From the NCBI RefSeq assembly GCF_041886205.1, contig NZ_CP169029.1: a stretch of DNA of 64,000 nt. One strand, 5' to 3'. The translations under genes were made by a program, and so were the position numbers. Source of the DNA: Escherichia coli. Lineage in GTDB: Bacteria; Pseudomonadota; Gammaproteobacteria; Enterobacterales; Enterobacteriaceae. Shown here in pieces: positions 269-51,561 of the stretch (position 1 is its first letter; each line of letters begins with the position of its first letter). The notes beneath the pieces are model-generated. The model saw only the letters and a list, made by a program, of their open reading frames with translations. It had not been told where the DNA came from and ran no database searches.

Positions 269-2560
269 TTGTCAGAACTACTCTCTTTCGCCCTTTTTCT
301 CGCCTCTGTGCTGATTTACGCATGGAAAGCGGGACGTAACACCTGGTGGTTTGCAGCCACATTAACGGTGCTGGGGCTATTTGTCGTTTTAAATATCACC
401 CTGTTTGCCAGCGACTATTTTACTGGCGATGGTATTAACGACGCGGTTCTCTATACCTTAACCAACAGCCTGACCGGTGCTGGCGTCAGCAAATACATCC
501 TGCCGGGTATCGGCATTGTGCTGGGGCTGACGGCGGTGTTCGGTGCGCTGGGCTGGATCCTGCGCCGTCGTCGTCATCATCCGCACCATTTTGGTTACAG
601 CCTGCTGGCGCTCTTACTGGCGCTGGGTTCGGTGGACGCCAGCCCGGCATTTCGTCAGATAACGGAACTGGTGAAATCCCAGTCACGCGATGGCGACCCG
701 GACTTTGCGGCTTATTATAAAGAGCCGTCGAAAACTATCCCTGACCCGAAACTCAACCTGGTTTATATCTATGGCGAAAGTCTCGAGCGAACCTATTTTG
801 ATAACGAAGCTTTCCCGGATCTCACGCCTGAACTGGGCGCGTTGAAAAATGAAGGCCTTGATTTCAGCCACACGCAGCAGCTGCCAGGAACGGATTACAC
901 GATTGCGGGCATGGTGGCTTCTCAGTGCGGCATTCCGCTTTTTGCCCCATTTGAAGGTAACGCCTCCGCTTCTGTTTCCAGCTTCTTCCCGCAGAACATC
1001 TGTCTGGGCGATATCCTGAAAAACTCGGGTTATCAGAACTATTTCGTGCAGGGCGCGAATCTGCGTTTTGCCGGTAAAGATGTGTTCCTGAAGTCGCATG
1101 GCTTCGACCACTTATACGGCTCAGAAGAGCTGAAAAGCGTGGTGGCCGACCCGCACTATCGCAACGACTGGGGATTCTACGACGATACCGTTCTCGATGA
1201 AGCGTGGAAAAAGTTTGAAGAGCTTTCCCGTTCTGGTCAGCGATTCTCACTGTTTACCCTGACAGTCGATACCCATCACCCGGATGGTTTTATCTCGCGT
1301 ACCTGTAACCGCAAAAAATATGATTTTGACGGTAAACCGAATCAGTCATTCAGCGCGGTAAGTTGCAGCCAGGAGAACATCGCGACGTTTATCAACAAAA
1401 TCAAAGCGTCACCGTGGTTTAAAGATACTGTCATCGTCGTCTCTTCTGACCATTTAGCGATGAACAACACGGCGTGGAAATACCTTAATAAGCAGGATCG
1501 CAATAACCTGTTTTTTGTCATTCGTGGCGACAAGCCGCAGCAAGAGACGCTGGCAGTGAAGCGTAACACGATGGATAACGGCGCGACGGTGCTGGACATT
1601 CTCGGTGGCGATAACTATCTCGGACTTGGTCGTAGCAGTTTATCCGGGCAGTCAATGTCGGAAATCTTCCTCAATATCAAAGAGAAAACATTGGCGTGGA
1701 AGCCGGATATCATCCGCCTGTGGAAATTCCCTAAAGAGATGAAAGAGTTCACCATCGACCAGCAGAAAAACATGATTGCCTTCTCGGGTAGCCATTTCCG
1801 TTTGCCGCTGCTGTTGCGGGTTTCAGACAAACGCGTGGAACCGCTGCCGGAAAGCGAATACTCAGCACCGCTGCGTTTCCAGTTGGCCGATTTCGCTCCA
1901 CGCGACAATTTCGTCTGGGTTGACCGTTGCTATAAGATGGCACAACTCTGGGCTCCGGAACTGGCACTCTCCACCGACTGGTGTGTCTCGCAGGGGCAGC
2001 TTGGCGGTCAGCAAATTGTCCAGCATGTTGATAAAACAATGTGGAAGGGCAAAACGGCATTTAAAGATACGGTCATCGACATGGCGCGTTACAAAGGCAA
2101 TGTCGATACGCTGAAGATTGTTGATAACGATATTCGCTACAAAGCCGACAGTTTCATCTTTAACGTCGCCGGTGCGCCAGAAGAGGTGAAACAGTTTAGC
2201 GGGATTTCCCGTCCGGAGTCGTGGGGCCGCTGGTCCAACGCGCAGCTGGGCGATGAAGTAAAAATCGAGTACAAGCATCCGCTGCCGAAGAAATTTGACC
2301 TGGTGATTACCGCCAAAGCATACGGCAATAACGCCAGCCGTCCTATTCCGGTACGCGTAGGCAATGAAGAACAAACTCTTGTGCTGGGCAATGAAGTGAC
2401 CACCACCACACTGCATTTCGATAACCCAACCGATGCCGACACACTGGTAATTGTGCCGCCGGAACCTGTCTCAACCAACGAAGGGAATATCCTCGGACAC
2501 TCGCCGCGTAAGCTCGGGATCGGCATGGTGGAAATTAAAGTTGTGGAACGTGAAGGGTAA
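269..2560 (+). CDS. opgB: Phosphoglycerol transferase I (OPG biosynthesis), sulfatase-family membrane enzyme
   Basis: 763-aa ORF with TTG start; N-terminal multi-TM region followed by sulfatase-like periplasmic domain; matches remembered OpgB/MdoB length and N-terminus [14 protein letters not shown]; synteny next to lgo genes. Confidence 0.88.
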
Positions 2561-2571
2561 TTCCTGACTGA

Positions 2572-2602
2572 TGTGTAGGTCGCATAAGGTGCGACCTACA
2601 CA
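2572..2602. repeat. REP-like perfect 13-bp inverted repeat immediately downstream of opgB
   Basis: tgtgtaggtcgca / taagg / tgcgacctacaca; no T-run, so more REP-like than intrinsic terminator. Confidence 0.5.
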
Positions 2603-2699
2603 CCTTCTCCGGCCTACAAAACATCATTGAGAAACAGAAAAAAAACAGCGCCCAACACTTCCCCGGACGCTGCATGGCAACTTTAATAATCTCGCCTTA

Positions 2700-3722
2700 T
2701 CAGAAAGTAATTACACCCTTAATCAACTCACGATTGTTAATCACATCGCGCTCGTAGGTTTCTGCCAGCGTGGCGAACGGATAGCGATGGGTTAACATCA
2801 TGTCAGCAGTGATTTTTCCTTCCGCCATCAGTCGACCGACTTTAGCAAAATCTTCCGGCGTGGCGTTGCGGCTGCCCATCATCGTCGTTTCTTTTTTATG
2901 GAATTCCGGATCGGAGAACTGCAACTCACCTTTAAACAGGCCGACAAATACCACCGTGCCGCCGTGACGAATCAGATTCACGGTGTTATTCATCGCATGT
3001 TGATTACCTGTCGCGTCGATCACTTTCTGCGCCAGCGAACCACCAAACTGCGCCCGCAGCTGCGCGTCAAAATCTTCGGCTGACGGGTCCAGCACGGGCA
3101 ACTCCAGACGCGTTGCCACATGTTCACGGCGCGCCGGACTGGTATCCGCCACCACCACCTGTGCGCCATCGGCTTTAGCGATTGCCGCCGCGCCCAGACC
3201 GATTGGCCCCGCCCCGACCACCAGCACCTGCTCGCCGGGAGCAATGGCTGCGCGACGCACTGCATGAGCGCTAATAGCGAAAGGTTCAATCAATGCTGCC
3301 GCCTGCGGGTCAATACCGTCTGCGGGCAAAATGTTCGCCACCGGCACGCTCAAATACTCACTAAAACCGCCATCCTGATGCACGCCAATGACTGAAATTT
3401 TTTCACAGCAATTGGTACGCCCGCTTTTACACGCCGGGCATTGCTGACAGGCAACATAAGGGATCACAGCAACTTGCTGACCATTTTTAAGATCAGCAAT
3501 ATTTTTACCCAGCCCAACAATCTCCCCACATATTTCATGGCCTAAAACCCGTGGATAACTAAAAAAAGGTTGATTTCCACCCCAGGCATGAATATCGGTA
3601 CCGCAAATCCCGACAGACTTAATTTTTATTAATGCTTCATTGTCACCCGGAATAGGTATCTCGCGTTGTTTCCAGACTAATTCTTTCGGCTGCTGGCAAA
3701 TTAAAACATTCATCGTAGACAT
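2700..3722 (-). CDS. lgoD: L-galactonate 5-dehydrogenase, Zn-dependent alcohol dehydrogenase family
   Basis: 340 aa from ATG at 3722 (MSTMNVLICQQPKE); Zn-ADH motifs GHEICGEIV and Cys cluster CQQCPACK, NAD-binding GAGPIGLG; synteny with lgoR/lgoT. Confidence 0.85.
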   Translation of the reverse strand: MSTMNVLICQQPKELVWKQREIPIPGDNEALIKIKSVGICGTDIHAWGGNQPFFSYPRVLGHEICGEIVGLGKNIADLKNGQQVAVIPYVACQQCPACKSGRTNCCEKISVIGVHQDGGFSEYLSVPVANILPADGIDPQAAALIEPFAISAHAVRRAAIAPGEQVLVVGAGPIGLGAAAIAKADGAQVVVADTSPARREHVATRLELPVLDPSAEDFDAQLRAQFGGSLAQKVIDATGNQHAMNNTVNLIRHGGTVVFVGLFKGELQFSDPEFHKKETTMMGSRNATPEDFAKVGRLMAEGKITADMMLTHRYPFATLAETYERDVINNRELIKGVITF

Positions 3723-3860
3723 GATTCGGCTCTCCATTTTTTGTTGCCTTAGATATCAATGAAAATGAAAAATGGCAGCGGAACGGAAAATCTGTTTTGT
3801 GAAAACACACGCATAAAAATGTTTTAAATCGGGTTTTAATGGACTCACAAGGAGGAAAAT

Positions 3861-4775
3861 ATGAGTCGTTCACAAAATTTACGCCACAATGTGATTAACC
3901 AGGTCATTGATGATATGGCGCGGGGTCATATCCCTTCCCCACTTCCATCGCAAAGTGCGCTGGCGGAAATGTACAACATCAGCCGCACCACAGTGCGTCA
4001 TATTCTCAGCCATTTACGCGAATGCGGCGTCTTGACGCAGGTTGGAAACGACTATGTTATTGCGCGTAAACCTGACCACGATGACGGTTTCGCCTGTACT
4101 ACCGCTTCAATGAGTGAACAAAACAAAGTGTTTGAGCAGGCTTTTTTCACGATGATAAACCAGCGTCAGTTACGCCCTGGGGAAACTTTTTCTGAACTGC
4201 AACTGGCGCGGGCCGCGGGTGTCAGCCCGGTGGTTGTAAGAGAATATCTTTTAAAATTCGGCCGTTATAATCTAATTCAAAGCGAAAAGCGCGGCCAGTG
4301 GAGCATGAAGCAATTCGATCAATCCTACGCCGAGCAGCTGTTTGAGCTACGCGAAATGCTCGAAACACATTCACTTCAGCACTTTCTCAACCTGCCTGAT
4401 CATGATCCCCGCTGGCTGCAGGCGAAAACCATGCTCGAACGTCATCGGCTACTGCGTGACAACATCGGCAATAGCTTTCGCATGTTCTCGCAACTTGACA
4501 GAGATTTTCACTCCTTACTGCTTTCGGCTGCCGACAATATCTTTTTTGATCAATCGCTTGAGATCATCTCAGTCATCTTTCATTTTCACTATCAATGGGA
4601 CGAAAGCGATCTTAAACAGCGCAATATCATTGCCGTCGATGAGCATATGACCATTCTCAGCGCTCTGATTTGCCGCAGTGACCTTGATGCCACCCTTGCG
4701 CTCCGTAACCATTTGAATTCAGCTAAACAATCAATGATTCGATCCATTAATGAGAACACGCGTTATGCTCATTAA
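3861..4775 (+). CDS. lgoR: GntR-family transcriptional regulator of L-galactonate utilisation
   Basis: 304 aa; N-terminal winged-HTH (ISRTTVRHILSHLRECGVL) plus C-terminal FCD-like domain; SD GGAGG before ATG. Confidence 0.82.
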   Translation: MSRSQNLRHNVINQVIDDMARGHIPSPLPSQSALAEMYNISRTTVRHILSHLRECGVLTQVGNDYVIARKPDHDDGFACTTASMSEQNKVFEQAFFTMINQRQLRPGETFSELQLARAAGVSPVVVREYLLKFGRYNLIQSEKRGQWSMKQFDQSYAEQLFELREMLETHSLQHFLNLPDHDPRWLQAKTMLERHRLLRDNIGNSFRMFSQLDRDFHSLLLSAADNIFFDQSLEIISVIFHFHYQWDESDLKQRNIIAVDEHMTILSALICRSDLDATLALRNHLNSAKQSMIRSINENTRYAH

Positions 4776-4989
4776 GTACGGATTAAAAACAGCAAACTAT
4801 TAGCGGGTGCACGGTTTTATCAAAAGATAAATACCGGGAAATTCCCGCTTACCTATGCTCACAATCAGTCGACTAAAAATGTTTTTGTGAGCGGTAGTAA
4901 AGTCCTAAAACTTTAACCTGCCGTTAATGTCAACCTTGCGTAATGCACAATTACGTAAACAATTAAAATTATAAATACAGGAGTCCGGC

Positions 4990-6351
4990 GTGGAAAAAGA
5001 AAATATCACCCTCGATCCGCGTTCTTCATTTACTCCATCTTCGTCGGCAGATATTCCCGTGCCACCAGATGGATTAGTTCAACGCAGTACCCGAATTAAA
5101 CGCATTCAAACCACCGCCATGTTGTTATTATTTTTTGCGGCGGTAATCAATTATCTCGACCGCAGTTCGCTGTCGGTAGCAAATTTAACGATTCGTGAAG
5201 AATTGGGATTAAGTGCCACCGAAATCGGCGCTTTGCTCTCCGTGTTTTCACTCGCTTACGGCATTGCGCAACTTCCTTGCGGCCCACTATTGGATCGTAA
5301 AGGCCCACGCCTGATGCTGGGACTGGGGATGTTCTTCTGGTCACTGTTCCAGGCCATGTCTGGCATGGTGCACAGCTTTACGCAGTTCGTGTTGGTGCGT
5401 ATCGGTATGGGGATTGGTGAAGCGCCGATGAACCCATGCGGTGTAAAAGTCATTAACGACTGGTTCAACATCAAAGAGCGCGGACGCCCGATGGGCTTCT
5501 TCAACGCAGCTTCTACCATTGGCGTTGCCGTAAGCCCACCGATTCTGGCGGCGATGATGCTGGTGATGGGCTGGCGCGGGATGTTTATTACCATTGGTGT
5601 ACTGGGGATTTTTCTCGCCATCGGCTGGTATATGCTCTATCGCAACCGCGAGCACGTAGAACTGACTGCCGTTGAACAAGCTTATCTCAATGCAGGTAGC
5701 GTCAATGCCCGCCGAGATCCGCTCAGTTTTGCCGAATGGCGCAGCTTGTTCCGTAACCGCACAATGTGGGGAATGATGCTCGGATTCAGTGGCATCAACT
5801 ACACTGCGTGGCTGTATCTGGCCTGGCTTCCTGGTTACCTGCAAACAGCCTATAACCTGGATTTAAAAAGCACAGGGTTGATGGCGGCTATCCCTTTCCT
5901 GTTTGGGGCTGCCGGGATGCTGGTCAACGGTTACGTTACCGACTGGCTGGTCAAAGGGGGAATGGCTCCGATTAAAAGCCGTAAGATCTGCATTATTGCC
6001 GGGATGTTCTGTTCTGCCGCCTTTACGCTGATAGTACCACAAGCGACAACATCCATGACGGCGGTTCTGCTGATTGGCATGGCACTGTTCTGTATTCACT
6101 TTGCCGGAACATCCTGCTGGGGCTTGATCCACGTCGCAGTTGCTTCTCGCATGACTGCGTCGGTGGGCAGTATCCAGAACTTTGCCAGCTTCATCTGCGC
6201 CTCTTTCGCGCCGATCATTACTGGTTTTATTGTTGATACCACCCACTCATTCCGTCTGGCACTAATCATCTGCGGTTGCGTCACCGCAGCGGGGGCACTG
6301 GCGTACATCTTCCTGGTTCGTCAGCCGATCAACGACCCACGTAAAGATTAA
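4990..6351 (+). CDS. lgoT: MFS-family L-galactonate:H+ symporter
   Basis: 453 aa, GTG start, 12 predicted TM segments, MFS signature region GPLLDRKGPR. Confidence 0.82.
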   Translation: MEKENITLDPRSSFTPSSSADIPVPPDGLVQRSTRIKRIQTTAMLLLFFAAVINYLDRSSLSVANLTIREELGLSATEIGALLSVFSLAYGIAQLPCGPLLDRKGPRLMLGLGMFFWSLFQAMSGMVHSFTQFVLVRIGMGIGEAPMNPCGVKVINDWFNIKERGRPMGFFNAASTIGVAVSPPILAAMMLVMGWRGMFITIGVLGIFLAIGWYMLYRNREHVELTAVEQAYLNAGSVNARRDPLSFAEWRSLFRNRTMWGMMLGFSGINYTAWLYLAWLPGYLQTAYNLDLKSTGLMAAIPFLFGAAGMLVNGYVTDWLVKGGMAPIKSRKICIIAGMFCSAAFTLIVPQATTSMTAVLLIGMALFCIHFAGTSCWGLIHVAVASRMTASVGSIQNFASFICASFAPIITGFIVDTTHSFRLALIICGCVTAAGALAYIFLVRQPINDPRKD

Positions 6352-6360
6352 TCTCCCTAT

Positions 6361-6394
6361 GCCCGATAACATTTTGCTTATCGGGCATTTTTAT
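6361..6394 (+). terminator. Rho-independent terminator after lgoT
   Basis: gcccgataa / cattttgc / ttatcgggc hairpin followed by atttttat. Confidence 0.7.
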
Positions 6395-6399
6395 GGCGA

Positions 6400-8064
6400 T
6401 TAAAACGTTTCCCAGTTCTCACCGCTATCTGCCACGGCCATTTTACGCGGCGCAGCTGGCATCACGGTTTTTACCACAGCCGATGTTTCACGCTGCTGTT
6501 GCTGCTGTTGCTGAATCCGGAACACTGCCACAGCTTCGGTCAGGCGACTGGCCTGCTCTTCCAGCGCGGCGGCGGCAGCGGCAGACTCTTCCACCAACGC
6601 GGCGTTCTGTTGAGTTACCCGGTCCATCTCAGCAACCGCTAAGCCAACCTGATCGATACCGCGGCTCTGCTCATCAGAAGCAGAAGCAATTTCGCCCATA
6701 ATGTCCGTCACGCGGGTCACGGCGCTGACAATCTCCGCCATTGTTTCCCCGGCGCTTTCGACCAGCGTAGAGCCAACATCCACTTTCCCCACCGAGTCTT
6801 CAATCAGGCTTTTAATTTCACGAGCCGCCTGGGCGCTGCGCTGGGCCAGATTACGCACTTCACCCGCGACCACCGCAAAACCGCGCCCTTGCTCACCCGC
6901 ACGCGCAGCCTCAACCGCCGCGTTCAAAGCCAGAATATTGGTCTGGAAGGCAATGCCGTCAATTACGCTGATAATATCGGCGATTTTCTGCGAACTGGTG
7001 GAAATATCGCGCATAGTCTGCACCACGTTATCTACCACTTTGCCGCCGCGTTGCGCCGTTTCAGAAGCACTTAACGCCAGGTGGCTGGCCTGGCGCGCAT
7101 TCTCGGCGTTCTGTTTCACCGTTGCGGTCAGTTGCTCCATGCTGGCTGCCGTCTCTTCCAGCGAAGCGGCCTGTTGCTCGGTGCGCGAAGAGAGATCGTT
7201 ATTGCCGGTGGCGATTTCGCTGGCACCGCTATAGATGGCATTGGCCCCGTTGCGCACATCACCGACGGTACGCATCAGCTCTCCCTGCATATGGCGCAAA
7301 CTCTCTGCCAGTTGCCCCATCTCATTAGAGCCATCCACCTCAATCGGTTTCACCAGATCGCCGCCTGCAATATGACGAATGCTGTCAATCAGGCGATTCA
7401 TTGGCGCTACCAGCGAGGCTTTAATACCGAACCAGACGGCGAAGATGACCGCCAGTACGACGATCATCACGCCCACCAGAATCCACATCGCCTGGCTGTA
7501 GGAGGCATTGTTATCGCTGACGGCGATATCATAGAGCCGATCGTTTTGCTCCATGTAAGCCACATACTGCTTCTCGAAACCGTCCTGATATCCCTGGGTC
7601 GGCTGATCAAAGAACTCGTTGATTTTGCCTGCACCTAACAGTTGGATCAGCTCCGCCAGCGCATTGTGATAAATATCGTAATTACGTTTGATCTCTGCCG
7701 CTGCGGCGGTGCTCTGACGCGGGTCACGCGGCAACGCTTCGTAATCCGCCCAGTTTTTTTCCGCCTGTTTCAGCGAAATACTGGCACTCTGCATCAGCTC
7801 AGCAACGGTTGAACCGCTACCAATATTATTCTGATCCATCATGTAGCGGATACCCGCGCGGTTGAGGGTGTTACGCGTCTGCAACAACGCGACCCAGCTG
7901 CCATTCAGCGTGGATTGCTGCTGGCGAATGGTTTGTAAAACAGTGAAATTTTCTTTGTCATTCTTTAAGGCATTAAAGAACAGACCGCCTGATGTCAGTT
8001 GTAAAAGGCCAAAAACGGCCAAAACCAGCAGTAAGCTGGTCACGATCTTGATACGTTTTAACAT
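6400..8064 (-). CDS. tsr: Methyl-accepting chemotaxis protein I (serine chemoreceptor)
   Basis: 554 aa; two TM segments, HAMP, highly conserved MCP signalling core ([37 protein letters not shown]), C-terminal NWETF pentapeptide; contains a 7-Gln tract near the C-terminus. Confidence 0.92.
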
Positions 8065-8095
8065 GGTTTCTCTTTCCTGTGGACCGACATCAGGA

Positions 8096-8122
8096 TTTTC
8101 GGCCTGAAATGAGAAAACTTTA
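8096..8122 (-). promoter_or_regulatory. Sigma-28 (FliA) class-3 flagellar promoter of tsr
   Basis: On the minus strand TAAAGTTT-N11-GCCGAAAA, one mismatch from consensus TAAAGTTT-N11-GCCGATAA, about 30 nt upstream of the tsr ATG. Confidence 0.7.
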
Positions 8123-8292
8123 TAGGTAGCGACTTGAAACTGGTTAATTTTACCTCACTTTTTTAATTTTTGTTCAAAAATACAATAACCACTTATTGAT
8201 ACATTTTCTTTTCTTATTTTTTTCACACGAATTGTATCTATTTTGAACGAAATATTTTATAGAGTGTGGAATTTTAAGAAAGGACATCTGAA

Positions 8293-8835
8293 ATGTTAAA
8301 CCGTGACTTCGATCATCTCTCAACGCTATTACATCTCTTTTTTGAACGTGAGGATATTTGCCAAAAGCTTAATATTATTGACCAAAACAATATCACCGGT
8401 TGGGAAGTGTGGTTCCAGGTAGAATTTGCTAATATGCTCTGCTCAACAGACCATGAATGGTGGCGTGAACAGGCACTTTCCTGTGATATGCGCAAAAAAC
8501 CTGAACGCCCGACACTACGCACAGATTTCTTACTACGTAAAAAAGGCTGGGCGCAAGATAGCTATATCGCGCTTGAAATAAAACAAAACAGTGACGCGAC
8601 CAGTTGTGTTAAAAATATGATCGCAGACTTAGAAAAAAGCGCCAAAATCAAACGTTCAGAACTCGAGTTACGCAGTTTCTGGACCCTGGGTATCACCCCT
8701 GTGATAGACAGAGAAAGGCTGGATTCTCTCATCGATTGCTATTTAGATGAGAAATTTTATCTTACTAAATCTCGTAAAAAACACGTTTTACTTAAAGAAA
8801 TAAATAATACACCATATTCCTATATTGTTATTTAA
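8293..8835 (+). CDS. Hypothetical 180-aa protein with PD-(D/E)XK-like motif, AT-rich
   Basis: 543-nt ORF in strongly AT-rich DNA where long ORFs are unlikely by chance; AAGGA upstream of ATG; motif D(TDFLL)...E-I-K (YIALEIKQ) spaced like a PD-(D/E)XK nuclease core; I do not recall a gene between tsr and btsT in K-12. Confidence 0.5.
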   Translation: MLNRDFDHLSTLLHLFFEREDICQKLNIIDQNNITGWEVWFQVEFANMLCSTDHEWWREQALSCDMRKKPERPTLRTDFLLRKKGWAQDSYIALEIKQNSDATSCVKNMIADLEKSAKIKRSELELRSFWTLGITPVIDRERLDSLIDCYLDEKFYLTKSRKKHVLLKEINNTPYSYIVI

Positions 8836-8943
8836 TATTTATAGCATGAATATAATTTTTATATGAGTTACACAACCGAGGGCTAAAAATCGCTTCGGTT
8901 GTGATCATCATCACATAAATAACCTTCATAAACCTTGCTCAAA

Positions 8944-8971
8944 ACCGCTCAACCGCAAAACTGACCGCTTA
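8944..8971 (+). promoter_or_regulatory. Putative BtsR (YehT) LytTR-type response-regulator binding site upstream of btsT
   Basis: Direct repeats ACCGCTCA ... ACCGCTTA separated by about 12 bp, matching the remembered ACC(G/T)CT(C/T)A repeat motif of the yjiY/btsT promoter. Confidence 0.5.
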
Positions 8972-9127
8972 CGTCCCTAAAATAACCACTCAGTTATTTA
9001 CCTTACTTTACGCGCGCGTAACTCTGGCAACATCACTGCAGGATAGCGGTCAATTTACCTCCTCAAACGCAACGCAAACCTAGAACGGCTTCGGCCAACG
9101 ATTAATCAATACATGCCAGGTTTTACT

Positions 9128-11278
9128 ATGGATACTAAAAAGATATTCAAGCACATACCCTGGGTGATTCTCGGAATCATCGGTGCATTCTGCCTCGCGG
9201 TAGTTGCATTACGTCGGGGGGAGCACGTCAGCGCCCTGTGGATCGTGGTCGCCTCTGTGTCGGTGTATCTGGTGGCGTATCGCTACTACAGTCTGTACAT
9301 CGCCCAGAAGGTGATGAAACTCGACCCCACGCGCGCGACGCCTGCGGTTATTAACAACGACGGTCTGAACTACGTTCCGACCAACCGTTACGTGTTGTTT
9401 GGTCACCACTTCGCCGCTATCGCCGGTGCTGGTCCGCTGGTCGGTCCGGTTCTCGCCGCACAGATGGGCTACCTGCCTGGCACGCTGTGGCTGCTGGCGG
9501 GGGTAGTACTGGCCGGTGCGGTTCAGGACTTTATGGTGCTGTTTATCTCCTCTCGCCGTAACGGCGCATCTCTCGGTGAGATGATCAAAGAAGAGATGGG
9601 GCCAGTTCCGGGGACTATCGCGCTGTTTGGCTGTTTCTTAATCATGATCATCATCCTCGCCGTTCTGGCGCTGATTGTGGTTAAAGCCCTGGCCGAAAGT
9701 CCGTGGGGTGTCTTCACCGTTTGCTCAACCGTACCGATTGCGCTGTTTATGGGTATCTACATGCGCTTTATCCGTCCGGGGCGTGTGGGTGAAGTCTCTG
9801 TCATTGGTATCGTGCTGCTGGTTGCCTCTATCTACTTCGGTGGCGTGATTGCTCACGATCCGTACTGGGGTCCGGCACTGACCTTTAAAGACACCACCAT
9901 TACCTTCGCGCTGATTGGCTATGCGTTTGTTTCCGCACTGCTGCCGGTGTGGCTGATCCTCGCACCGCGCGACTATCTGGCAACCTTCCTGAAAATCGGC
10001 GTTATCGTCGGCCTGGCGCTGGGTATCGTGGTGCTGAACCCGGAACTGAAAATGCCTGCGATGACCCAGTACATTGACGGTACTGGCCCGCTATGGAAAG
10101 GCGCTCTGTTCCCGTTCCTGTTCATCACCATCGCCTGTGGTGCGGTATCTGGCTTCCACGCGCTGATCTCTTCCGGTACGACGCCGAAACTGCTGGCTAA
10201 TGAAACCGACGCGCGTTTCATTGGCTACGGCGCAATGCTGATGGAGTCCTTCGTGGCGATTATGGCGCTGGTTGCTGCATCCATCATCGAACCGGGTCTT
10301 TACTTCGCGATGAATACCCCGCCTGCTGGCCTTGGCATCACCATGCCTAACCTGCATGAAATGGGTGGCGAGAACGCGCCGATCATCATGGCGCAGCTGA
10401 AAGACGTTACCGCACACGCGGCAGCGACAGTCAGCTCCTGGGGCTTCGTGATTTCGCCAGAGCAGATCCTGCAAACCGCGAAAGACATTGGTGAGCCTTC
10501 TGTCCTGAACCGTGCAGGTGGTGCGCCGACGCTGGCGGTAGGTATCGCTCACGTGTTCCACAAAGTGCTGCCGATGGCTGACATGGGCTTCTGGTATCAC
10601 TTCGGTATTCTGTTCGAAGCCCTGTTCATCCTGACCGCGCTGGATGCGGGTACTCGTTCTGGCCGCTTTATGCTGCAAGACCTGCTGGGTAACTTCATCC
10701 CGTTCCTGAAAAAAACCGACTCTCTGGTTGCCGGTATCATCGGTACTGCGGGCTGTGTGGGTCTGTGGGGCTACCTGCTGTATCAGGGCGTGGTCGATCC
10801 GCTGGGCGGCGTTAAGAGCCTGTGGCCGCTGTTCGGTATTTCCAACCAGATGCTGGCAGCCGTAGCGCTGGTACTGGGCACCGTTGTGCTGATTAAGATG
10901 AAGCGCACCCAATACATCTGGGTAACTGTTGTTCCGGCTGTATGGCTGCTTATCTGCACCACCTGGGCGCTGGGTCTGAAACTGTTCAGCACCAACCCGC
11001 AGATGGAAGGCTTCTTCTACATGGCAAGCCAGTACAAAGAGAAGATTGCTAACGGTACTGACCTGACGGCGCAGCAGATTGCCAACATGAACCACATCGT
11101 TGTGAACAACTACACCAACGCGGGCCTGAGTATTCTGTTCCTGATTGTGGTGTACAGCATCATCTTCTACGGTTTCAAAACCTGGCTTGCGGTGCGTAAC
11201 AGCGACAAACGTACTGACAAAGAAACACCGTACGTTCCAATCCCGGAAGGCGGCGTGAAGATCTCTTCGCACCACTAA
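9128..11278 (+). CDS. btsT: Pyruvate/H+ symporter, CstA-family transporter
   Basis: 716 aa from ATG at 9128 (MDTKKIFKHIPWVILG); many TM helices; CstA family architecture; synteny with yjiX-yjiA. Confidence 0.88.
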   Translation: MDTKKIFKHIPWVILGIIGAFCLAVVALRRGEHVSALWIVVASVSVYLVAYRYYSLYIAQKVMKLDPTRATPAVINNDGLNYVPTNRYVLFGHHFAAIAGAGPLVGPVLAAQMGYLPGTLWLLAGVVLAGAVQDFMVLFISSRRNGASLGEMIKEEMGPVPGTIALFGCFLIMIIILAVLALIVVKALAESPWGVFTVCSTVPIALFMGIYMRFIRPGRVGEVSVIGIVLLVASIYFGGVIAHDPYWGPALTFKDTTITFALIGYAFVSALLPVWLILAPRDYLATFLKIGVIVGLALGIVVLNPELKMPAMTQYIDGTGPLWKGALFPFLFITIACGAVSGFHALISSGTTPKLLANETDARFIGYGAMLMESFVAIMALVAASIIEPGLYFAMNTPPAGLGITMPNLHEMGGENAPIIMAQLKDVTAHAAATVSSWGFVISPEQILQTAKDIGEPSVLNRAGGAPTLAVGIAHVFHKVLPMADMGFWYHFGILFEALFILTALDAGTRSGRFMLQDLLGNFIPFLKKTDSLVAGIIGTAGCVGLWGYLLYQGVVDPLGGVKSLWPLFGISNQMLAAVALVLGTVVLIKMKRTQYIWVTVVPAVWLLICTTWALGLKLFSTNPQMEGFFYMASQYKEKIANGTDLTAQQIANMNHIVVNNYTNAGLSILFLIVVYSIIFYGFKTWLAVRNSDKRTDKETPYVPIPEGGVKISSHH

Positions 11279-45393: not shown

Positions 45394-46578
45394 TTAACGG
45401 CTAAAGAAAGCGCGCTGGATCGCCAGTTCGACACCGCGAACTTCGGCCAGGCCTTTCAGACGACCAATTGCGGAGTAACCTGGGTTGGTTTTCTTCTTCA
45501 GGTCGTCCAGCATCTGATGACCGTGGTCCGGACGCATCGGGATCAGGTCTTCTTTGCCTTCCGCTTTACGACGGTGTTCTTCTTCAACAATCGCTTTCAC
45601 CACTTCGTACATATCAACGTCACCGTTCAGGTGCGCCGCTTCGTGGAAGGTTTTGGGGTTATCTTCACGCATGGTGGAGCGCAGATGGGTGAAGTAAATG
45701 CGCGGACCAAACTGCTTGATCATATCAACCAGATCGTTGTCAGCACGCACGCCGTAGGAACCGGTGCACATGGTGAAACCGTTCGCCATGCTGTTTACGG
45801 TATCAACCATCCACTGCATATCTTCAATGGTGGAAACAATGCGCGGCAGGCCGAGGATCGGGCGCGGCGGATCGTCCGGGTGAACAGCCATACGCACGCC
45901 AACTTCTTCGGCAACCGGAATAATCGCTTTCAGGAAGACCGCAAAGTTTTCGCGCAGTTTGGCTTTGTCGATATCTTTGTACAGCTCCAGGTGTTTACGG
46001 AACTGGTCGAGGGTGTAGCCTTCTTCCGCGCCCGGAAGACCAGCAATGATGTTACGGGTCAGACGCGCTTTGTCTTCGTCGCTCATAGTGGCGAAGCGAA
46101 CAGCAGCCTGAGCAATTTCTTCTTCGGCGTAATCCGCTTCCGCGCCTGGACGTTTCAGGATATGCATTTCGAATGCAGCGAATTCGATCTGGTCGAAGCG
46201 CAGCGCTTTGGAGCCGTCTGGCAGCACGTATTCGAGGTCAGTACGGGTCCAGTCGAGCACCGGCATGAAGTTGTAGCACACGGTGCGAATGCCGCACTGC
46301 GCCAGGTTGCGCAGAGTCTGCTGATAGTTAGCGATCCACTGCTCATAGTTGCCAGTGTGGGTTTTGATATCTTCGTGAATTGGTACGCTTTCTACGACAG
46401 ACCACACCAGGCCTGCGTCTTCAACGATCGCCTTGCGTTTGAGGATCTCTTCTACGGACCATACTTCGCCGTTCGGGATATGGTGCAGCGCGGTAACCAC
46501 GCCAGTTGCGCCCGCCTGACGGACATCAGCTAAAGAAACCGGATCGTTTGGGCCGTACCAGCGCCAGGTCTGTTCCAT
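45394..46578 (-). CDS. uxuA: D-mannonate dehydratase
   Basis: 394 aa from [16 protein letters not shown]; synteny. Confidence 0.9.
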
Positions 46579-46740
46579 GATTTTTCCTCTTTCACATAGT
46601 GGGTTCCACAGCAAAGAGACGCGGAACCCTGGAGTTGTTTAGGTATCCGGATGAACAACCAGACCGCAGCCGTGGCGTTGCATCGGATGAGATGGCGTAT
46701 AAGTTCTACCTTTTGGTAAGACATGTCAACCCGAATTCTG

Positions 46741-46757
46741 AAATTGGTTAACCACAT
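46741..46757. promoter_or_regulatory. UxuR/ExuR operator-like palindrome in uxuA upstream region
   Basis: aaattggttaaccacat with TGGTTAACCA palindromic core. Confidence 0.5.
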
Positions 46758-46972
46758 CACAAGAAATCAACTCTATTGCTGGTTGATGCAAATGACAACA
46801 AAGGAGAAGCGGCGGTTAGTAATCGGGGGATGTGACATTCATCGCAATAATGGTTGACCAATTTACATAACGTGTCGCCCAAAATAACAATGGATTAACC
46901 TACTCCCCCATTGCATAAGTTGTGACCGACACAACAAAACTGATGTTGTTGCAAAGATTGCTATTTAGTTTT

Positions 46973-46987
46973 GGTATAAAAGGTATA
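46973..46987 (+). promoter_or_regulatory. Tandem GGTATA repeats, NanR-operator-like, about 50 bp upstream of nanM
   Basis: GGTATAaaaGGTATA; NanR is known to bind GGTATA repeats. Confidence 0.4.
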
Positions 46988-47036
46988 CAGGCACATGGTG
47001 CGACATTTGAATTCCAGCGATCAGGAGTAATTCACA

Positions 47037-48143
47037 ATGAATAAAACAATAACGGCGCTTGCTATCATGATGGCTTCATTTGCCGCAAACGCGTCTGTAT
47101 TACCGGAAACTCCTGTGCCATTTAAAAGTGGTACCGGAGCAATTGATAACGACACTGTCTACATTGGTTTAGGTAGCACAGGTACGGCATGGTACAAGCT
47201 GGATACACAGGCCAAAGATAAAAAATGGACAGCGTTAGCTGCATTCCCTGGCGGACCAAGAGATCAAGCAACCTCGGCATTTATTGATGGCAATCTGTAT
47301 GTGTTTGGCGGCATTGGCAAAAACAGCGAGGGCTTGACTCAGGTATTTAATGACGTACACAAATACAACCCCAAAACCAATAGTTGGGTTAAATTGATGT
47401 CGCACGCACCGATGGGCATGGCGGGTCATGTAACTTTTGTACACAACGGCAAGGCTTATGTTACTGGCGGTGTTAACCAGAATATCTTCAATGGCTATTT
47501 TGAAGATCTCAACGAGGCTGGAAAAGATTCAACCGCTGTAGATAAAATCAACGCTCACTATTTTGACAAAAAAGCAGAAGATTATTTCTTCAATAAGTTT
47601 CTGTTGTCTTTTGATCCCTCAACACAGCAATGGAGTTACGCTGGCGAATCCCCCTGGTACGGAACGGCTGGTGCGGCGGTTGTGAATAAAGGTGATAAAG
47701 CCTGGCTTATTAATGGCGAAGCCAAACCAGGATTGCGAACGGATGCCGTATTTGAACTTGATTTCACCGGTAATAATTTAAAATGGAATAAGCTTGCTCC
47801 CGTCTCATCACCAGATGGCGTCGCTGGCGGTTTTGCGGGGATAAGCAATGATTCTCTTATATTTGCCGGAGGGGCCGGATTCAAAGGTTCACGAGAAAAT
47901 TACCAGAACGGTAAGAACTATGCGCATGAAGGCCTGAAAAAATCATATAGCGCTGATGTTCATCTTTGGCATAACGGGAAATGGGATAAATCGGGCGAAT
48001 TGTCGCAAGGTCGGGCCTACGGAGTATCATTGCCCTGGAATAATAGTTTATTAATTATTGGCGGTGAAACTGCAGGCGGCAAAGCGGTGACGGATTCAGT
48101 TTTGATCTCTGTGAAGGATAATAAAGTCACAGTACAAAACTAA
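47037..48143 (+). CDS. nanM: N-acetylneuraminate mutarotase (Kelch-repeat beta-propeller, periplasmic)
   Basis: 368 aa; signal peptide MNKTITALAIMMASFAANA; repeated GG-containing Kelch blades (YVFGGIG, YVTGGVN, IFAGGAGF, LLIIGGE). Confidence 0.85.
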   Translation: MNKTITALAIMMASFAANASVLPETPVPFKSGTGAIDNDTVYIGLGSTGTAWYKLDTQAKDKKWTALAAFPGGPRDQATSAFIDGNLYVFGGIGKNSEGLTQVFNDVHKYNPKTNSWVKLMSHAPMGMAGHVTFVHNGKAYVTGGVNQNIFNGYFEDLNEAGKDSTAVDKINAHYFDKKAEDYFFNKFLLSFDPSTQQWSYAGESPWYGTAGAAVVNKGDKAWLINGEAKPGLRTDAVFELDFTGNNLKWNKLAPVSSPDGVAGGFAGISNDSLIFAGGAGFKGSRENYQNGKNYAHEGLKKSYSADVHLWHNGKWDKSGELSQGRAYGVSLPWNNSLLIIGGETAGGKAVTDSVLISVKDNKVTVQN

Positions 48144-49195: not shown

Positions 49196-49846
49196 TTAAT
49201 TTGATTTATTCGCATCCATTAGCGCTTTTAACTGCTCCGGCGTAAACGGTGGTTTGCGTCGGTGCAGCATCGCATGGCAATTAGGGCACACAGGAAGCAA
49301 ATCATTAACTGGATCCAGCTGGTAATCCTCTTTAATGGCTGAAAGCGGCACCAGGTGATGCACATGGATAAAGCCTTCAGCGATATCACCATAGATCTTC
49401 ACCAGATCAACGCCGCATACGTTGCATTGGCATCCATGATGTTCGACCGCTTTATCTCGGGCCTTTTTATCGCGTTCATAGCGGTTTACTGTCACCTTTA
49501 TCGCCGCACCTTCAACGTAGGTCCCCTGCGACGGCAGCTCATCCGGGAACAGAACGTCGGCTATGGGAGCCGCAGCGGCTTTATCCTGATGAATATGAAA
49601 TCCCTGCTCTATGAGTAGCTTGACACATTTAGATTTTATTCCGCCGGTGAAATCCGCAGGGGTAAATTGCGTCCCCGTCATCAATGTCGCTGCGATGCCA
49701 GCAATCGCCTTCGAGGGGTAACGTCGGCCATGATATTCAATTTCATACAACCGTGCAGGCTGGAACTGATGAGTTTCTCCCGCATCCCATAAATGAATAG
49801 CTTCGATGATATACCGCCGCGGAAGATGATCGGGGAGTTTATTCAT
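49196..49846 (-). CDS. HNH endonuclease with N-terminal putative DNA-recognition domain (candidate modification-dependent restriction enzyme)
   Basis: 216 aa; SD AAGGA; C-terminal HNH motif (CQCNVCGVD ... HVHHLVPL ... CPNCHAMLH); stop codon 8 bp from nanS stop (convergent). Confidence 0.7.
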   Translation of the reverse strand: MNKLPDHLPRRYIIEAIHLWDAGETHQFQPARLYEIEYHGRRYPSKAIAGIAATLMTGTQFTPADFTGGIKSKCVKLLIEQGFHIHQDKAAAAPIADVLFPDELPSQGTYVEGAAIKVTVNRYERDKKARDKAVEHHGCQCNVCGVDLVKIYGDIAEGFIHVHHLVPLSAIKEDYQLDPVNDLLPVCPNCHAMLHRRKPPFTPEQLKALMDANKSN

Positions 49847-49992
49847 AGAGAATGTCCTTATACGTTCTCAGAACAAGCAGCAAAAAAACAAATGAGATCA
49901 AAGTAATATATCTTCACTTGCAGGCTTGAACAGCAGAAAATTTGCGAGCATGATCGCAATTATTTCACTGCCAGGGAGGTAATGACTCCAAC

Positions 49993-50496
49993 TTATTGAT
50001 AGTGTTTTATGTTCAGATAATGCCCGATGACTTTGTCATGCAGCTCCACCGATTTTGAGAACGACAGCGACTTCCGTCCCAGCCGTGCCAGGTGCTGTCT
50101 CAGATTCAGGTTATGCCGCTCAATTCGCTGCGTATATCGCTTGCTGATTACGTGCAGCTTTCCCTTCAGGCGGGATTCATACAGCGGCCAGCCATCCGTC
50201 ATCCATATCACCACGTCAAAGGGTGACAGCAGGCTCATAAGACGCCCCAGCGTCGCCATAGTGCGTTCACCGAATACGTGCGCAACAACCGTCTTCCGGA
50301 GCCTGTCATACGCGTAAAACAGCCAGCGCTGGCGCGATTTAGCCCCGACATAGCCCCACTGTTCGTCCATTTCCGCGCAGACGATGACGTCACTGCCCGG
50401 CTGTATGCGCGAGGTTACCGACTGCGGCCTGAGTTTTTTAAATGGCGGAAAATCGTGTTGAGGCCAACGCCCATAATGCGGGCGGTTGCCCGGCAT
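49993..50496 (-). CDS. insB: IS1 transposase InsB
   Basis: 167-aa ORF matching IS1 InsB ([19 protein letters not shown]...). Confidence 0.9.
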
Positions 50497-50690
50497 CCAA
50501 CGCCATTCATGGCCATATCAATGATTTTCTGGTGCGTACCGGGTTGAGAAGCGGTGTAAGTGAACTGCAGTTGCCATGTTTTACGGCAGTGAGAGCAGAG
50601 ATAGCGCTGATGTCCGGCGGTGCTTTTGCCGTTACGCACCACCCCGTCAGTAGCTGAACAGGAGGGACAGCTGATAGAAACAGAAGCCAC
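50415..50690 (-). CDS. insA: IS1 protein InsA
   Basis: 91 aa, zinc-finger [37 protein letters not shown]; overlaps insB as in IS1 (frameshift fusion InsAB'). Confidence 0.9.
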
Positions 50691-50766
50691 TGGAGCACCT
50701 CAAAAACACCATCATACACTAAATCAGTAAGTTGGCAGCATCACCCAGCAAACGAACCTGGATGAT

Positions 50767-51057
50767 TTGCCGGATAAAGCCAGCATCATTGACGCGTTTT
50801 TTACCTTTGCTCAACGCGAACAGCAACGTGAAGCAGAAGCCTTGATCAAAGAAGAAAATCTCAATGAAGAGGCGGCGAAACGCTATATTCGCACGTCTTT
50901 AAAACGCGAATACGCCACCGAAAATGGCACGGAATTAAACGAGACATTGCCAAAACTCAGTCCGTTAAATCCGCAATATAAGACGAAAAAACAGACGGTT
51001 TTCCAGAAGATCGTCGCGTTTATTGAGAAGTTTAAAGGTGTAGGCGGGCAGATATAA
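50767..51057 (+). pseudogene. Truncated ORF (C-terminal fragment) abutting the IS1 end
   Basis: 96-codon frame beginning 22 bp after the IS1 terminus; charged, helical-looking sequence; followed by a perfect hairpin cctgatctg/cagatcagg; identity unknown. Confidence 0.35.
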
Positions 51058-51241
51058 TGTATTAATCCGAACCTGATCTGGCAGATAGCTGTCAGATCAG
51101 GACTGAGCTAATACAAATTAATGTCGAACCGAAAATACCAACGCCTGTACCAACATTTTTCGTTTGCGATGGGTTGGAATTGGTTAGCCCTGAGAGAGTT
51201 AAAATAGCGAGAAAGATAGGTAACTAACGGATTTCAGACAC

Positions 51242-51266
51242 AAAAAAAGCCGCTCTTGAGCGGCTC
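51242..51266 (-). terminator. Rho-independent terminator of leuX
   Basis: Minus strand: gccgctc / tcaa / gagcggc followed by a T-run (plus-strand aaaaaaa at 51242-51248). Confidence 0.75.
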
Positions 51267-51282
51267 GATTTGCATACGGTGT

Positions 51283-51367
51283 GGTGCCGAAGGCCGGACT
51301 CGAACCGGCACGTATTTCTACGGTTGATTTTGAATCAACTGCGTCTACCGATTTCGCCACTTCGGCA
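51283..51367 (-). tRNA. leuX: tRNA-Leu (anticodon CAA)
   Basis: 85-nt minus-strand sequence GCCGAAGTGGCGAAATCGGTAGACGCAGTTGATTCAAAATCAACCGTAGAAATACGTGCCGGTTCGAGTCCGGCCTTCGGCACCA; anticodon loop TTCAAAA; next to ahr as in K-12. Confidence 0.92.
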
Positions 51368-51561
51368 CTGAAGAGGTATGCGGAAAACGTTGTGGATTAT
51401 ACCTGTCGCACGCCACCATGCAAGCGCCAGCTTGCTCGCACCTCGCTAAGTGCTGAAATTTTCAGCATTGCATACAGCGATGTGTAACCTTTGTCACACT
51501 CCAGGCACCCCGCCCTGCCATGCTCTACACTTCCCAGACCACACCAGAGAAGGACCAAAAA

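Follow-up and report, generated by a model that had tools for sequence, protein, structure and literature searches.

A short reading frame abutting IS1 near leuX in Escherichia coli as the likely 3' end of a lost type IC hsdR gene

The nanS-leuX interval

The window, that is, the whole 64-kb stretch of E. coli DNA that was analysed, contains a strip between nanS and leuX in which an endonuclease gene, an insertion sequence and a short truncated frame lie side by side. The features of this strip are listed below from left to right.

49196..49846, minus strand: intact gene for an HNH endonuclease of 216 aa (ScoMcrA_N + HNH; Pfam HNH and ScoMcrA_N, PADLOC type IV REase models)
49969..49977, no strand: left flank of IS1, TGCCAGGGA, the left deletion breakpoint (alignments to the relatives L001, L013 and L002 end at 49977)
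49978..50745, minus strand: intact IS1, 768 bp, with IRR at 49978-50000 (plus strand) and IRL at 50723-50745 (minus strand); 0 terminal-repeat matches expected by chance
49993-50496, minus strand: insB', open reading frame of 167 aa
50415-50690, minus strand: insA, open reading frame of 91 aa
50746..51057, plus strand: 3' remnant read as hsdR, codons 936-1038 plus stop of a type IC (EcoR124-family) restriction subunit; pseudogene
50767..51057, plus strand: 96-codon ORF with a TTG start, inside the remnant, taken from the mechanical ORF list
51072..51101, plus strand: hairpin belonging to the original 3' flank of hsdR; its stem has 13 pairs (one of them G-U) and its loop 4 nt
51247..51266, minus strand: leuX intrinsic terminator, a G+C-rich stem followed by T7 (terminator scan)
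51282..51366, minus strand: leuX, tRNA-Leu(CAA) (ARAGORN; Rfam tRNA, 59.4 bits)

Beyond leuX lie ahr and yjgR. The HNH gene is the surviving left neighbour of a block of genes that is missing from the window, and it is annotated as an HNH endonuclease in E. coli WAT. Its protein weakly matches type IV methyl-directed restriction models, and the gene for its usual partner, a phosphorothioate-dependent ScoMcrA-like endonuclease, is gone. Further to the left (45394-48143), nanM (47037-48143, plus strand) lies ~420 bp from uxuA (45394-46614, minus strand). The nanC gene, the fim cluster, and gntP, which separate nanM and uxuA in K-12-like genomes, are absent, and the layout is the same in the relatives L012-L014.

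The insertion sequence qualifies as an IS1 element by its terminal inverted repeats, which are ~23 bp long and imperfect, and it is 97-99.5% identical to annotated IS1 copies over its full length. The A6C slippery motif TTTAAAAAAC is readable on the minus strand near 50440. IS1 normally generates target-site duplications of 8-9 bp and is a known cause of deletions (PMC12428005). No 8-9-bp duplication is present at this copy, as the left flank TGCCAGGGA and the right flank CAGCAAACG differ. The missing duplication is expected after an adjacent deletion or after recombination between two IS1 copies, and it is no argument against the identity of the element.

The preliminary description of this DNA had drawn attention to a 96-codon frame starting 22 bp past the IS1 terminus and followed by a perfect hairpin with a 9-bp stem. 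Both were found: the last base of IS1 is 50745, the TTG codon lies at 50767, and the peptide quoted earlier occurs in the translation of the frame. The perfect 9-bp arms of the hairpin are CCTGATCTG (51072-51080) and CAGATCAGG (51093-51101), and folding lengthens the stem to 13 pairs. In RNA folding, the 81-nt context of the hairpin reached -29.5 kcal/mol (z = -6.2), and 0 of 200 shuffled sequences folded as well. The 30-nt hairpin sequence occurs only once in the window. In the test for a rho-independent terminator, the stable stem was found to be followed by ACTGAGCTAATAC with no T-run, and the terminator scan makes no call there. The hairpin is the original 3' flank of hsdR. Its 30 nt are unchanged in all aligned leuX-side loci except L003, which has one G-to-A change that breaks the stem. 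This change is the only one and no covariation is seen among the aligned loci, so the alignment has no word on function. An Rfam scan of 50700-51500 matched only the tRNA; three matches to sRNA families were far below the gathering scores.

Identity of the truncated frame

What is the short frame between IS1 and the hairpin? It was described earlier as a 96-codon remnant of a larger gene. A 96-codon ORF does exist, and the homologous remnant is longer than the ORF. The reading frame is open from 50731, i.e., already inside IS1, and the stretch homologous to hsdR starts at 50746, the first base past the element. It spans 312 bp, which corresponds to 103 codons plus the stop codon.

Evidence for the family assignment comes from profile and structure comparisons. 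The translation of the remnant matches the Pfam family PF12008 (EcoR124_C) with E = 1.9e-20 and 74 bits, against a cut-off of 23.1, and it covers only profile positions 169-260 of 260, the last 92. The Pfam entry is titled 'Type I restriction and modification enzyme - subunit R C terminal'. The PADLOC model REase_I likewise matches at 3e-29 with model positions 871-973 of 976. In a comparison with PDB, the remnant aligned end to end with residues 936-1038 of the 1038-residue HsdR of EcoR124I/II (2w00, 4beb, and others), and 99 of the 103 residues are identical. Further evidence comes from L013, a metagenome scaffold in which a full-length 1038-aa HsdR is encoded beside leuX. The last 103 residues of that protein are exactly the translation of the remnant.

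The rest of the protein is missing from the window. The intact ortholog has the domain order HSDR_N, ResIII/SWI2_SNF2, T1R_D3-like, and EcoR124_C. The N-terminal PD-(D/E)xK nuclease domain (HSDR_N), present in that ortholog, is absent from the 64-kb window, and so are the SF2 helicase/translocase motor domains (ResIII, SWI2_SNF2) that the ortholog also has. When the full L013 HsdR was searched against the 64-kb window by tblastn, only residues 931-1039 were matched. Because the motor and nuclease domains are absent, the window carries a fragment of an HsdR family member and not a functional member. Even the C-terminal domain is incomplete. By our own arithmetic from the chain numbering of 5j3n, in which the C-terminal region was solved separately, that region begins near residue 887. 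By the same arithmetic, the remnant misses roughly the first 49 residues of the solved region and keeps ~2/3 of the domain. The partners are missing as well: neither blastn nor tblastn gave any match to the L013 hsdM or hsdS genes anywhere in the 64-kb window.

The closest characterized counterparts are the HsdR subunits of EcoR124I and EcoR124II, which share 99 of 103 residues with the remnant. The intact ortholog at the locus of the window is also 1038 aa long and has the same Pfam order as these subunits. In contrast to them, the window lacks the nuclease, both motors, the helical domain, and the start of the C-terminal domain. The locus is also chromosomal, whereas EcoR124I itself is plasmid-borne.

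The alternative that the 96-codon ORF is a complete, stand-alone small gene can be given hardly any probability at all. The ORF is uninterrupted, it has a possible TTG start, and gene callers called it in 14 contigs. However, it matches only EcoR124_C positions 169-260 of 260, that is, residues 936-1038 of a 1038-aa protein. Moreover, the homology does not begin at the TTG but runs upstream of it right to the end of IS1, and in WAT and L013 the identical DNA closes a gene of 3,117 bp. The preliminary description had named a complete small protein of the same length as the observation that would speak against truncation. The only public entries that long are annotated HsdR fragments. The exact 96-aa product of the ORF has the NCBI accession EKI47508.1 and the name 'type I site-specific deoxyribonuclease, HsdR family [Escherichia coli N1]'. 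The cluster formed around it at 90% identity has 420 members, and those listed are mostly C-terminal HsdR fragments of various lengths. The RefSeq pipeline labels equivalent remnants, including one of the same 312 bp, as 'type I restriction endonuclease subunit R, EcoR124 family; incomplete; missing N-terminus'. In other words, this is an ordinary IS-truncated pseudogene that is already annotated publicly. The evidence favors, at a probability of about 94%, that the frame is the dead 3' end (the last ~10%) of an EcoR124-family type IC hsdR gene, the rest of which was lost in the IS1 event. The earlier suggestion of a 3' remnant whose 5' part was removed by the IS1 event is borne out by these C-terminal-only matches in Pfam and PDB and by the full-length hsdR found at the same place in L013 and WAT.

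The intact locus and the probable deletion

The gene order before the loss can be read from relatives. In WAT, the order is hsdM-hsdS-hsdR(1038 aa)-leuX-ahr, and the 312 bp of the window are the end of the 3,117-bp hsdR. The 536 bp from the end of IS1 to leuX, remnant DNA included, are 100% identical between WAT and the window. Upstream of hsdR, WAT carries hsdS, hsdM, a DUF4942 gene, a DUF6088/AbiEii pair, a small ORF, and a remnant of the phosphorothioate-dependent (ScoMcrA-like) endonuclease gene. These are followed by the same 216-aa HNH gene and nanS that lie to the left of IS1 in the window. The distance from the hsdR stop codon to leuX is 224 bp in closely related genomes. A query made up of the remnant and the intergenic DNA up to leuX is matched over at least 80% of its length by 314 of 5,426 complete E. 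coli genomes.

L013 has the same layout as WAT and defines the missing block. It is 99.96% identical to the window over 10,782 bp to the left of IS1 and 100% identical over 1,163 bp to the right. The alignments stop exactly at the ends of IS1, 49977 and 50746. Between the two breakpoints, L013 has 8,706 bp (positions 1164-9869 of that scaffold), and this is the block that IS1 replaces. The left breakpoint lies 131 bp upstream of the start of the HNH gene and, in relatives, 5 bp before the start of the ScoMcrA-like gene. The lost block comprises 2,805 bp of hsdR (the first 935 codons), hsdS, hsdM, the DUF4942 gene, AbiEi/AbiEii, and a 61-aa ORF; the gene identities were taken from Pfam marks and PADLOC calls (REase_I, Specificity_I, MTase_I, AbiEi, AbiEii) on L013.

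How was the block lost? IS1-mediated adjacent deletion is most likely, because no 9-bp duplication surrounds the element and the DNA on both of its sides keeps the order of the intact locus. As in the classical form of such deletions, a complete IS1 is kept, no target duplication is present, and the flanks are collinear with an intact reference; unlike in the classical form, the mechanism is read here from the end product only. Two routes could have led to it. In one route, an IS1 already in place would have undergone intramolecular transposition. In the other, two directly repeated IS1 copies would have recombined. Both routes would yield the same end product and would be indistinguishable from the window. 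Other genomes repeatedly have IS1 ends at the same point of hsdR, which suggests that the insertion there came first. The deletion is very recent, and the remnant is probably too young for decay: intact alleles differ from it and from its 3' flank at 0 positions.

Support for the junctions outside the window comes from two draft contigs, both of which end inside IS1. Over 3,384 bp that include the junction, L016 (a draft scaffold, GCA_000303635.2) matches the window at 100% identity, and the sequence of L011, a draft contig, breaks off 1 base before the left junction. The whole HNH-IS1-hsdR'-leuX arrangement is not found in complete genomes: none of the 5,426 E. coli genomes covers at least 80% of the query.

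The join could instead be an assembly artefact, in which a pair of IS1 copies on either side of a still present 8.7-kb block had been merged into a single copy. IS1 is a multicopy repeat, and the related drafts L011 and L016 break at exactly these two junctions and cannot tell one IS1 from two. Yet the window reads through the full 768-bp IS1 with unique sequence on both sides, no part of the 8.7-kb block is present in the 64 kb, and comparable IS1-mediated losses with other breakpoints occur in finished genomes. An artefact is extremely unlikely on these grounds. The block could also have moved to a part of the genome beyond these 64 kb rather than been deleted; within the 64-kb window, a search at the DNA and protein levels found nothing of the 8,706 bp. 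An adjacent deletion mediated by IS1 is the preferred account of the locus.

The loss falls in a strip that differs from strain to strain. A ScoMcrA-like endonuclease, McrBC or AbiE, DUF4942, and type IC hsdMSR are all possible between nanS and leuX, and IS1 has struck the strip at many different points across strains. Variability of the leuX region, with IS-driven losses, was described earlier in E. coli and Shigella (PMC4374849). It had been expected that the origin of the frame would reveal what a leuX island originally carried. The hsd cluster is not carried by an integrase-borne island; it is part of the defence strip that varies from nanS to leuX. P4-like elements sit between hsdR and leuX in some relatives. 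It follows that the hsd cluster is a neighbour of the integration site and not island cargo.

Two relatives illustrate a loss of another kind. L012 and L014 (~5505-6602, compared with 607-1705 and 6601 onward in L013) have an IS-free 4.9-kb deletion of hsdM, hsdS, and most of hsdR. This deletion leaves an 854-bp hsdR remnant, and a P4-like element (Psu, AlpA, primase) is inserted at leuX. Their alignments with the window end at 50746, and a shared IS1 junction was considered. It was rejected because these loci have no IS1 and the 4.9-kb deletion is a separate, IS-free event. A breakpoint shared with the IS1 junction of strain DAX4 was likewise rejected, the remnants being 854 bp in one case and 840 bp in the other.

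Recurrent IS1 ends in hsdR, expression and consequences

IS1 ends lie at the same hsdR nucleotide, or 6 bp away from it, in at least four apparently independent contexts. The candidate target point, between codons 935 and 936, follows GATTTTATT and precedes CAGCAAACG. The cases are as follows.

(a) IRL then CAGCAAACG: the window (50746) and L016, leuX allele
(b) IRL then CAGCAAACG: seven complete genomes, next to ykgJ (L004/L005, 9769); another hsdR allele with ~30 differences in 312 bp and another 3' flank
(c) IRR then CAGCAAACG: L015 (about 76), opposite IS1 orientation and a different IS1 variant
(d) IRR then ACGAACCTG, 6 bp further in: L017-L020 (about 30), several flanking contexts

These contexts span two hsdR alleles ~10% apart, two loci, both orientations of IS1, and more than one IS1 variant. 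The seven genomes of case (b), strain 2 HS-C (pseudogene E4F32_RS17120) and six others, resemble the window in having a 312-bp remnant with the IS1 IRL at the identical nucleotide. They differ from it in that the remnant adjoins ykgJ and has a different hsdR allele (~90% identical) and a different 3' flank. A further counterpart, QN220_RS19775 of DAX4, has IS1 abutting an hsdR 3' remnant at the leuX locus itself, and the remnant there is 840 bp long. The allele found next to ykgJ also occurs in E. coli ET5 (L022, 5498-12312), which has a second type IC hsdMSR cluster in an Ag43/DUF932/GTPase island. The hsdR 3' end of this cluster is ~90% identical, and its hsdS region is interrupted by IS1.

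Target preference of IS1 is a known general phenomenon, and the recurrence could mean that type IC hsdR genes contain a strong hot spot for IS1 insertion. The odds for such a hot spot are about even. Cases (c) and (d) were found through a look-up of the exact 96-aa ORF, which can detect a truncation only if it lies no more than a few dozen bases before the TTG. The clustering is therefore partly built in. IS1 also meets hsdR at other positions: in DAX4 the junction is 840 bp from the stop codon, and in strain 3045 it falls in the last ~15 bp of the gene. Another explanation for the shared nucleotide is that the junction was copied between alleles, with homologous recombination transferring it from the ykgJ-locus remnant to the leuX locus. 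Such copying was rejected as unlikely, since the window has the leuX allele from the first base past IS1 and the alleles first differ 23 bp in, which leaves too little shared sequence for a crossover. Complete genomes were also searched for the counterpart junctions. The search for IRR-hsdR junctions gave only spurious ~88% matches to unrelated IS1 flanks. The search for the left junction of a simple insertion (the hsdR 5' part then IRR, with CAGCAAACG duplicated) also gave only spurious ~88% matches, and no precursor was found.

Is the remnant expressed? The promoter region of hsdR and 90% of the gene are gone. No Met codon occurs anywhere in the remnant frame. The sole start codon is TTG, and no convincing ribosome-binding site was found for it. 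On the plus strand, a consensus scan of 50600-51400 detected nothing promoter-like ahead of the remnant; its single hit on the IS1 side lies on the minus strand and points into IS1. The remnant is taken to be a silent, unexpressed pseudogene on the strength of these sequence features. Read-through from IS1 or outward transcription may occur, for which a consensus scan leaves room. The same scan picked up a sigma-70-like match at 51031-51058 on the plus strand (TTTAAA, a 16-nt spacer, TATAAT; 10/12). This match lies across the stop codon of hsdR and would direct transcription through the hairpin and on towards leuX, in antisense. It is probably a chance match, because the scan gave 2 sites compared with 1.3 in shuffled sequences.

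A different possibility is that the remnant is expressed, by read-out from IS1 or from the TTG, as a free HsdR C-terminal peptide. Such a peptide would compete for the type IC methylase core and dampen restriction, and the survival of the remnant would then reflect selection. The C-terminal domain of EcoR124I HsdR reportedly shares in complex assembly and DNA binding. The C-terminal region of this subunit was solved alone, as a GFP fusion (PDB 5j3n), and remnants that start from the same nucleotide or 6 bp away are present in at least four contexts. However, the frame lacks an ATG, a clear ribosome-binding site, and any promoter-like site ahead of it, it is missing roughly the first 49 residues of the solved region, and the window has no hsdM or hsdS for a peptide to act on. 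Furthermore, remnants of other lengths exist (~840 bp; several ORF lengths), so no length is favoured overall, and the look-up that yielded most of the recurrences was biased towards this very ORF. A free peptide under selection is very unlikely in light of these results.

If the hot spot is real, restriction would be repeatedly switched off by IS1, a point of small wider interest. The loss makes the strain restriction-deficient for this type IC system. The question of what originally adjoined leuX is answered: it was a small defence cluster, not virulence cargo. The finding leaves the understanding of type I enzymes and of IS1 unchanged, and it provides one further example of IS1 eroding the nanS-leuX defence strip.
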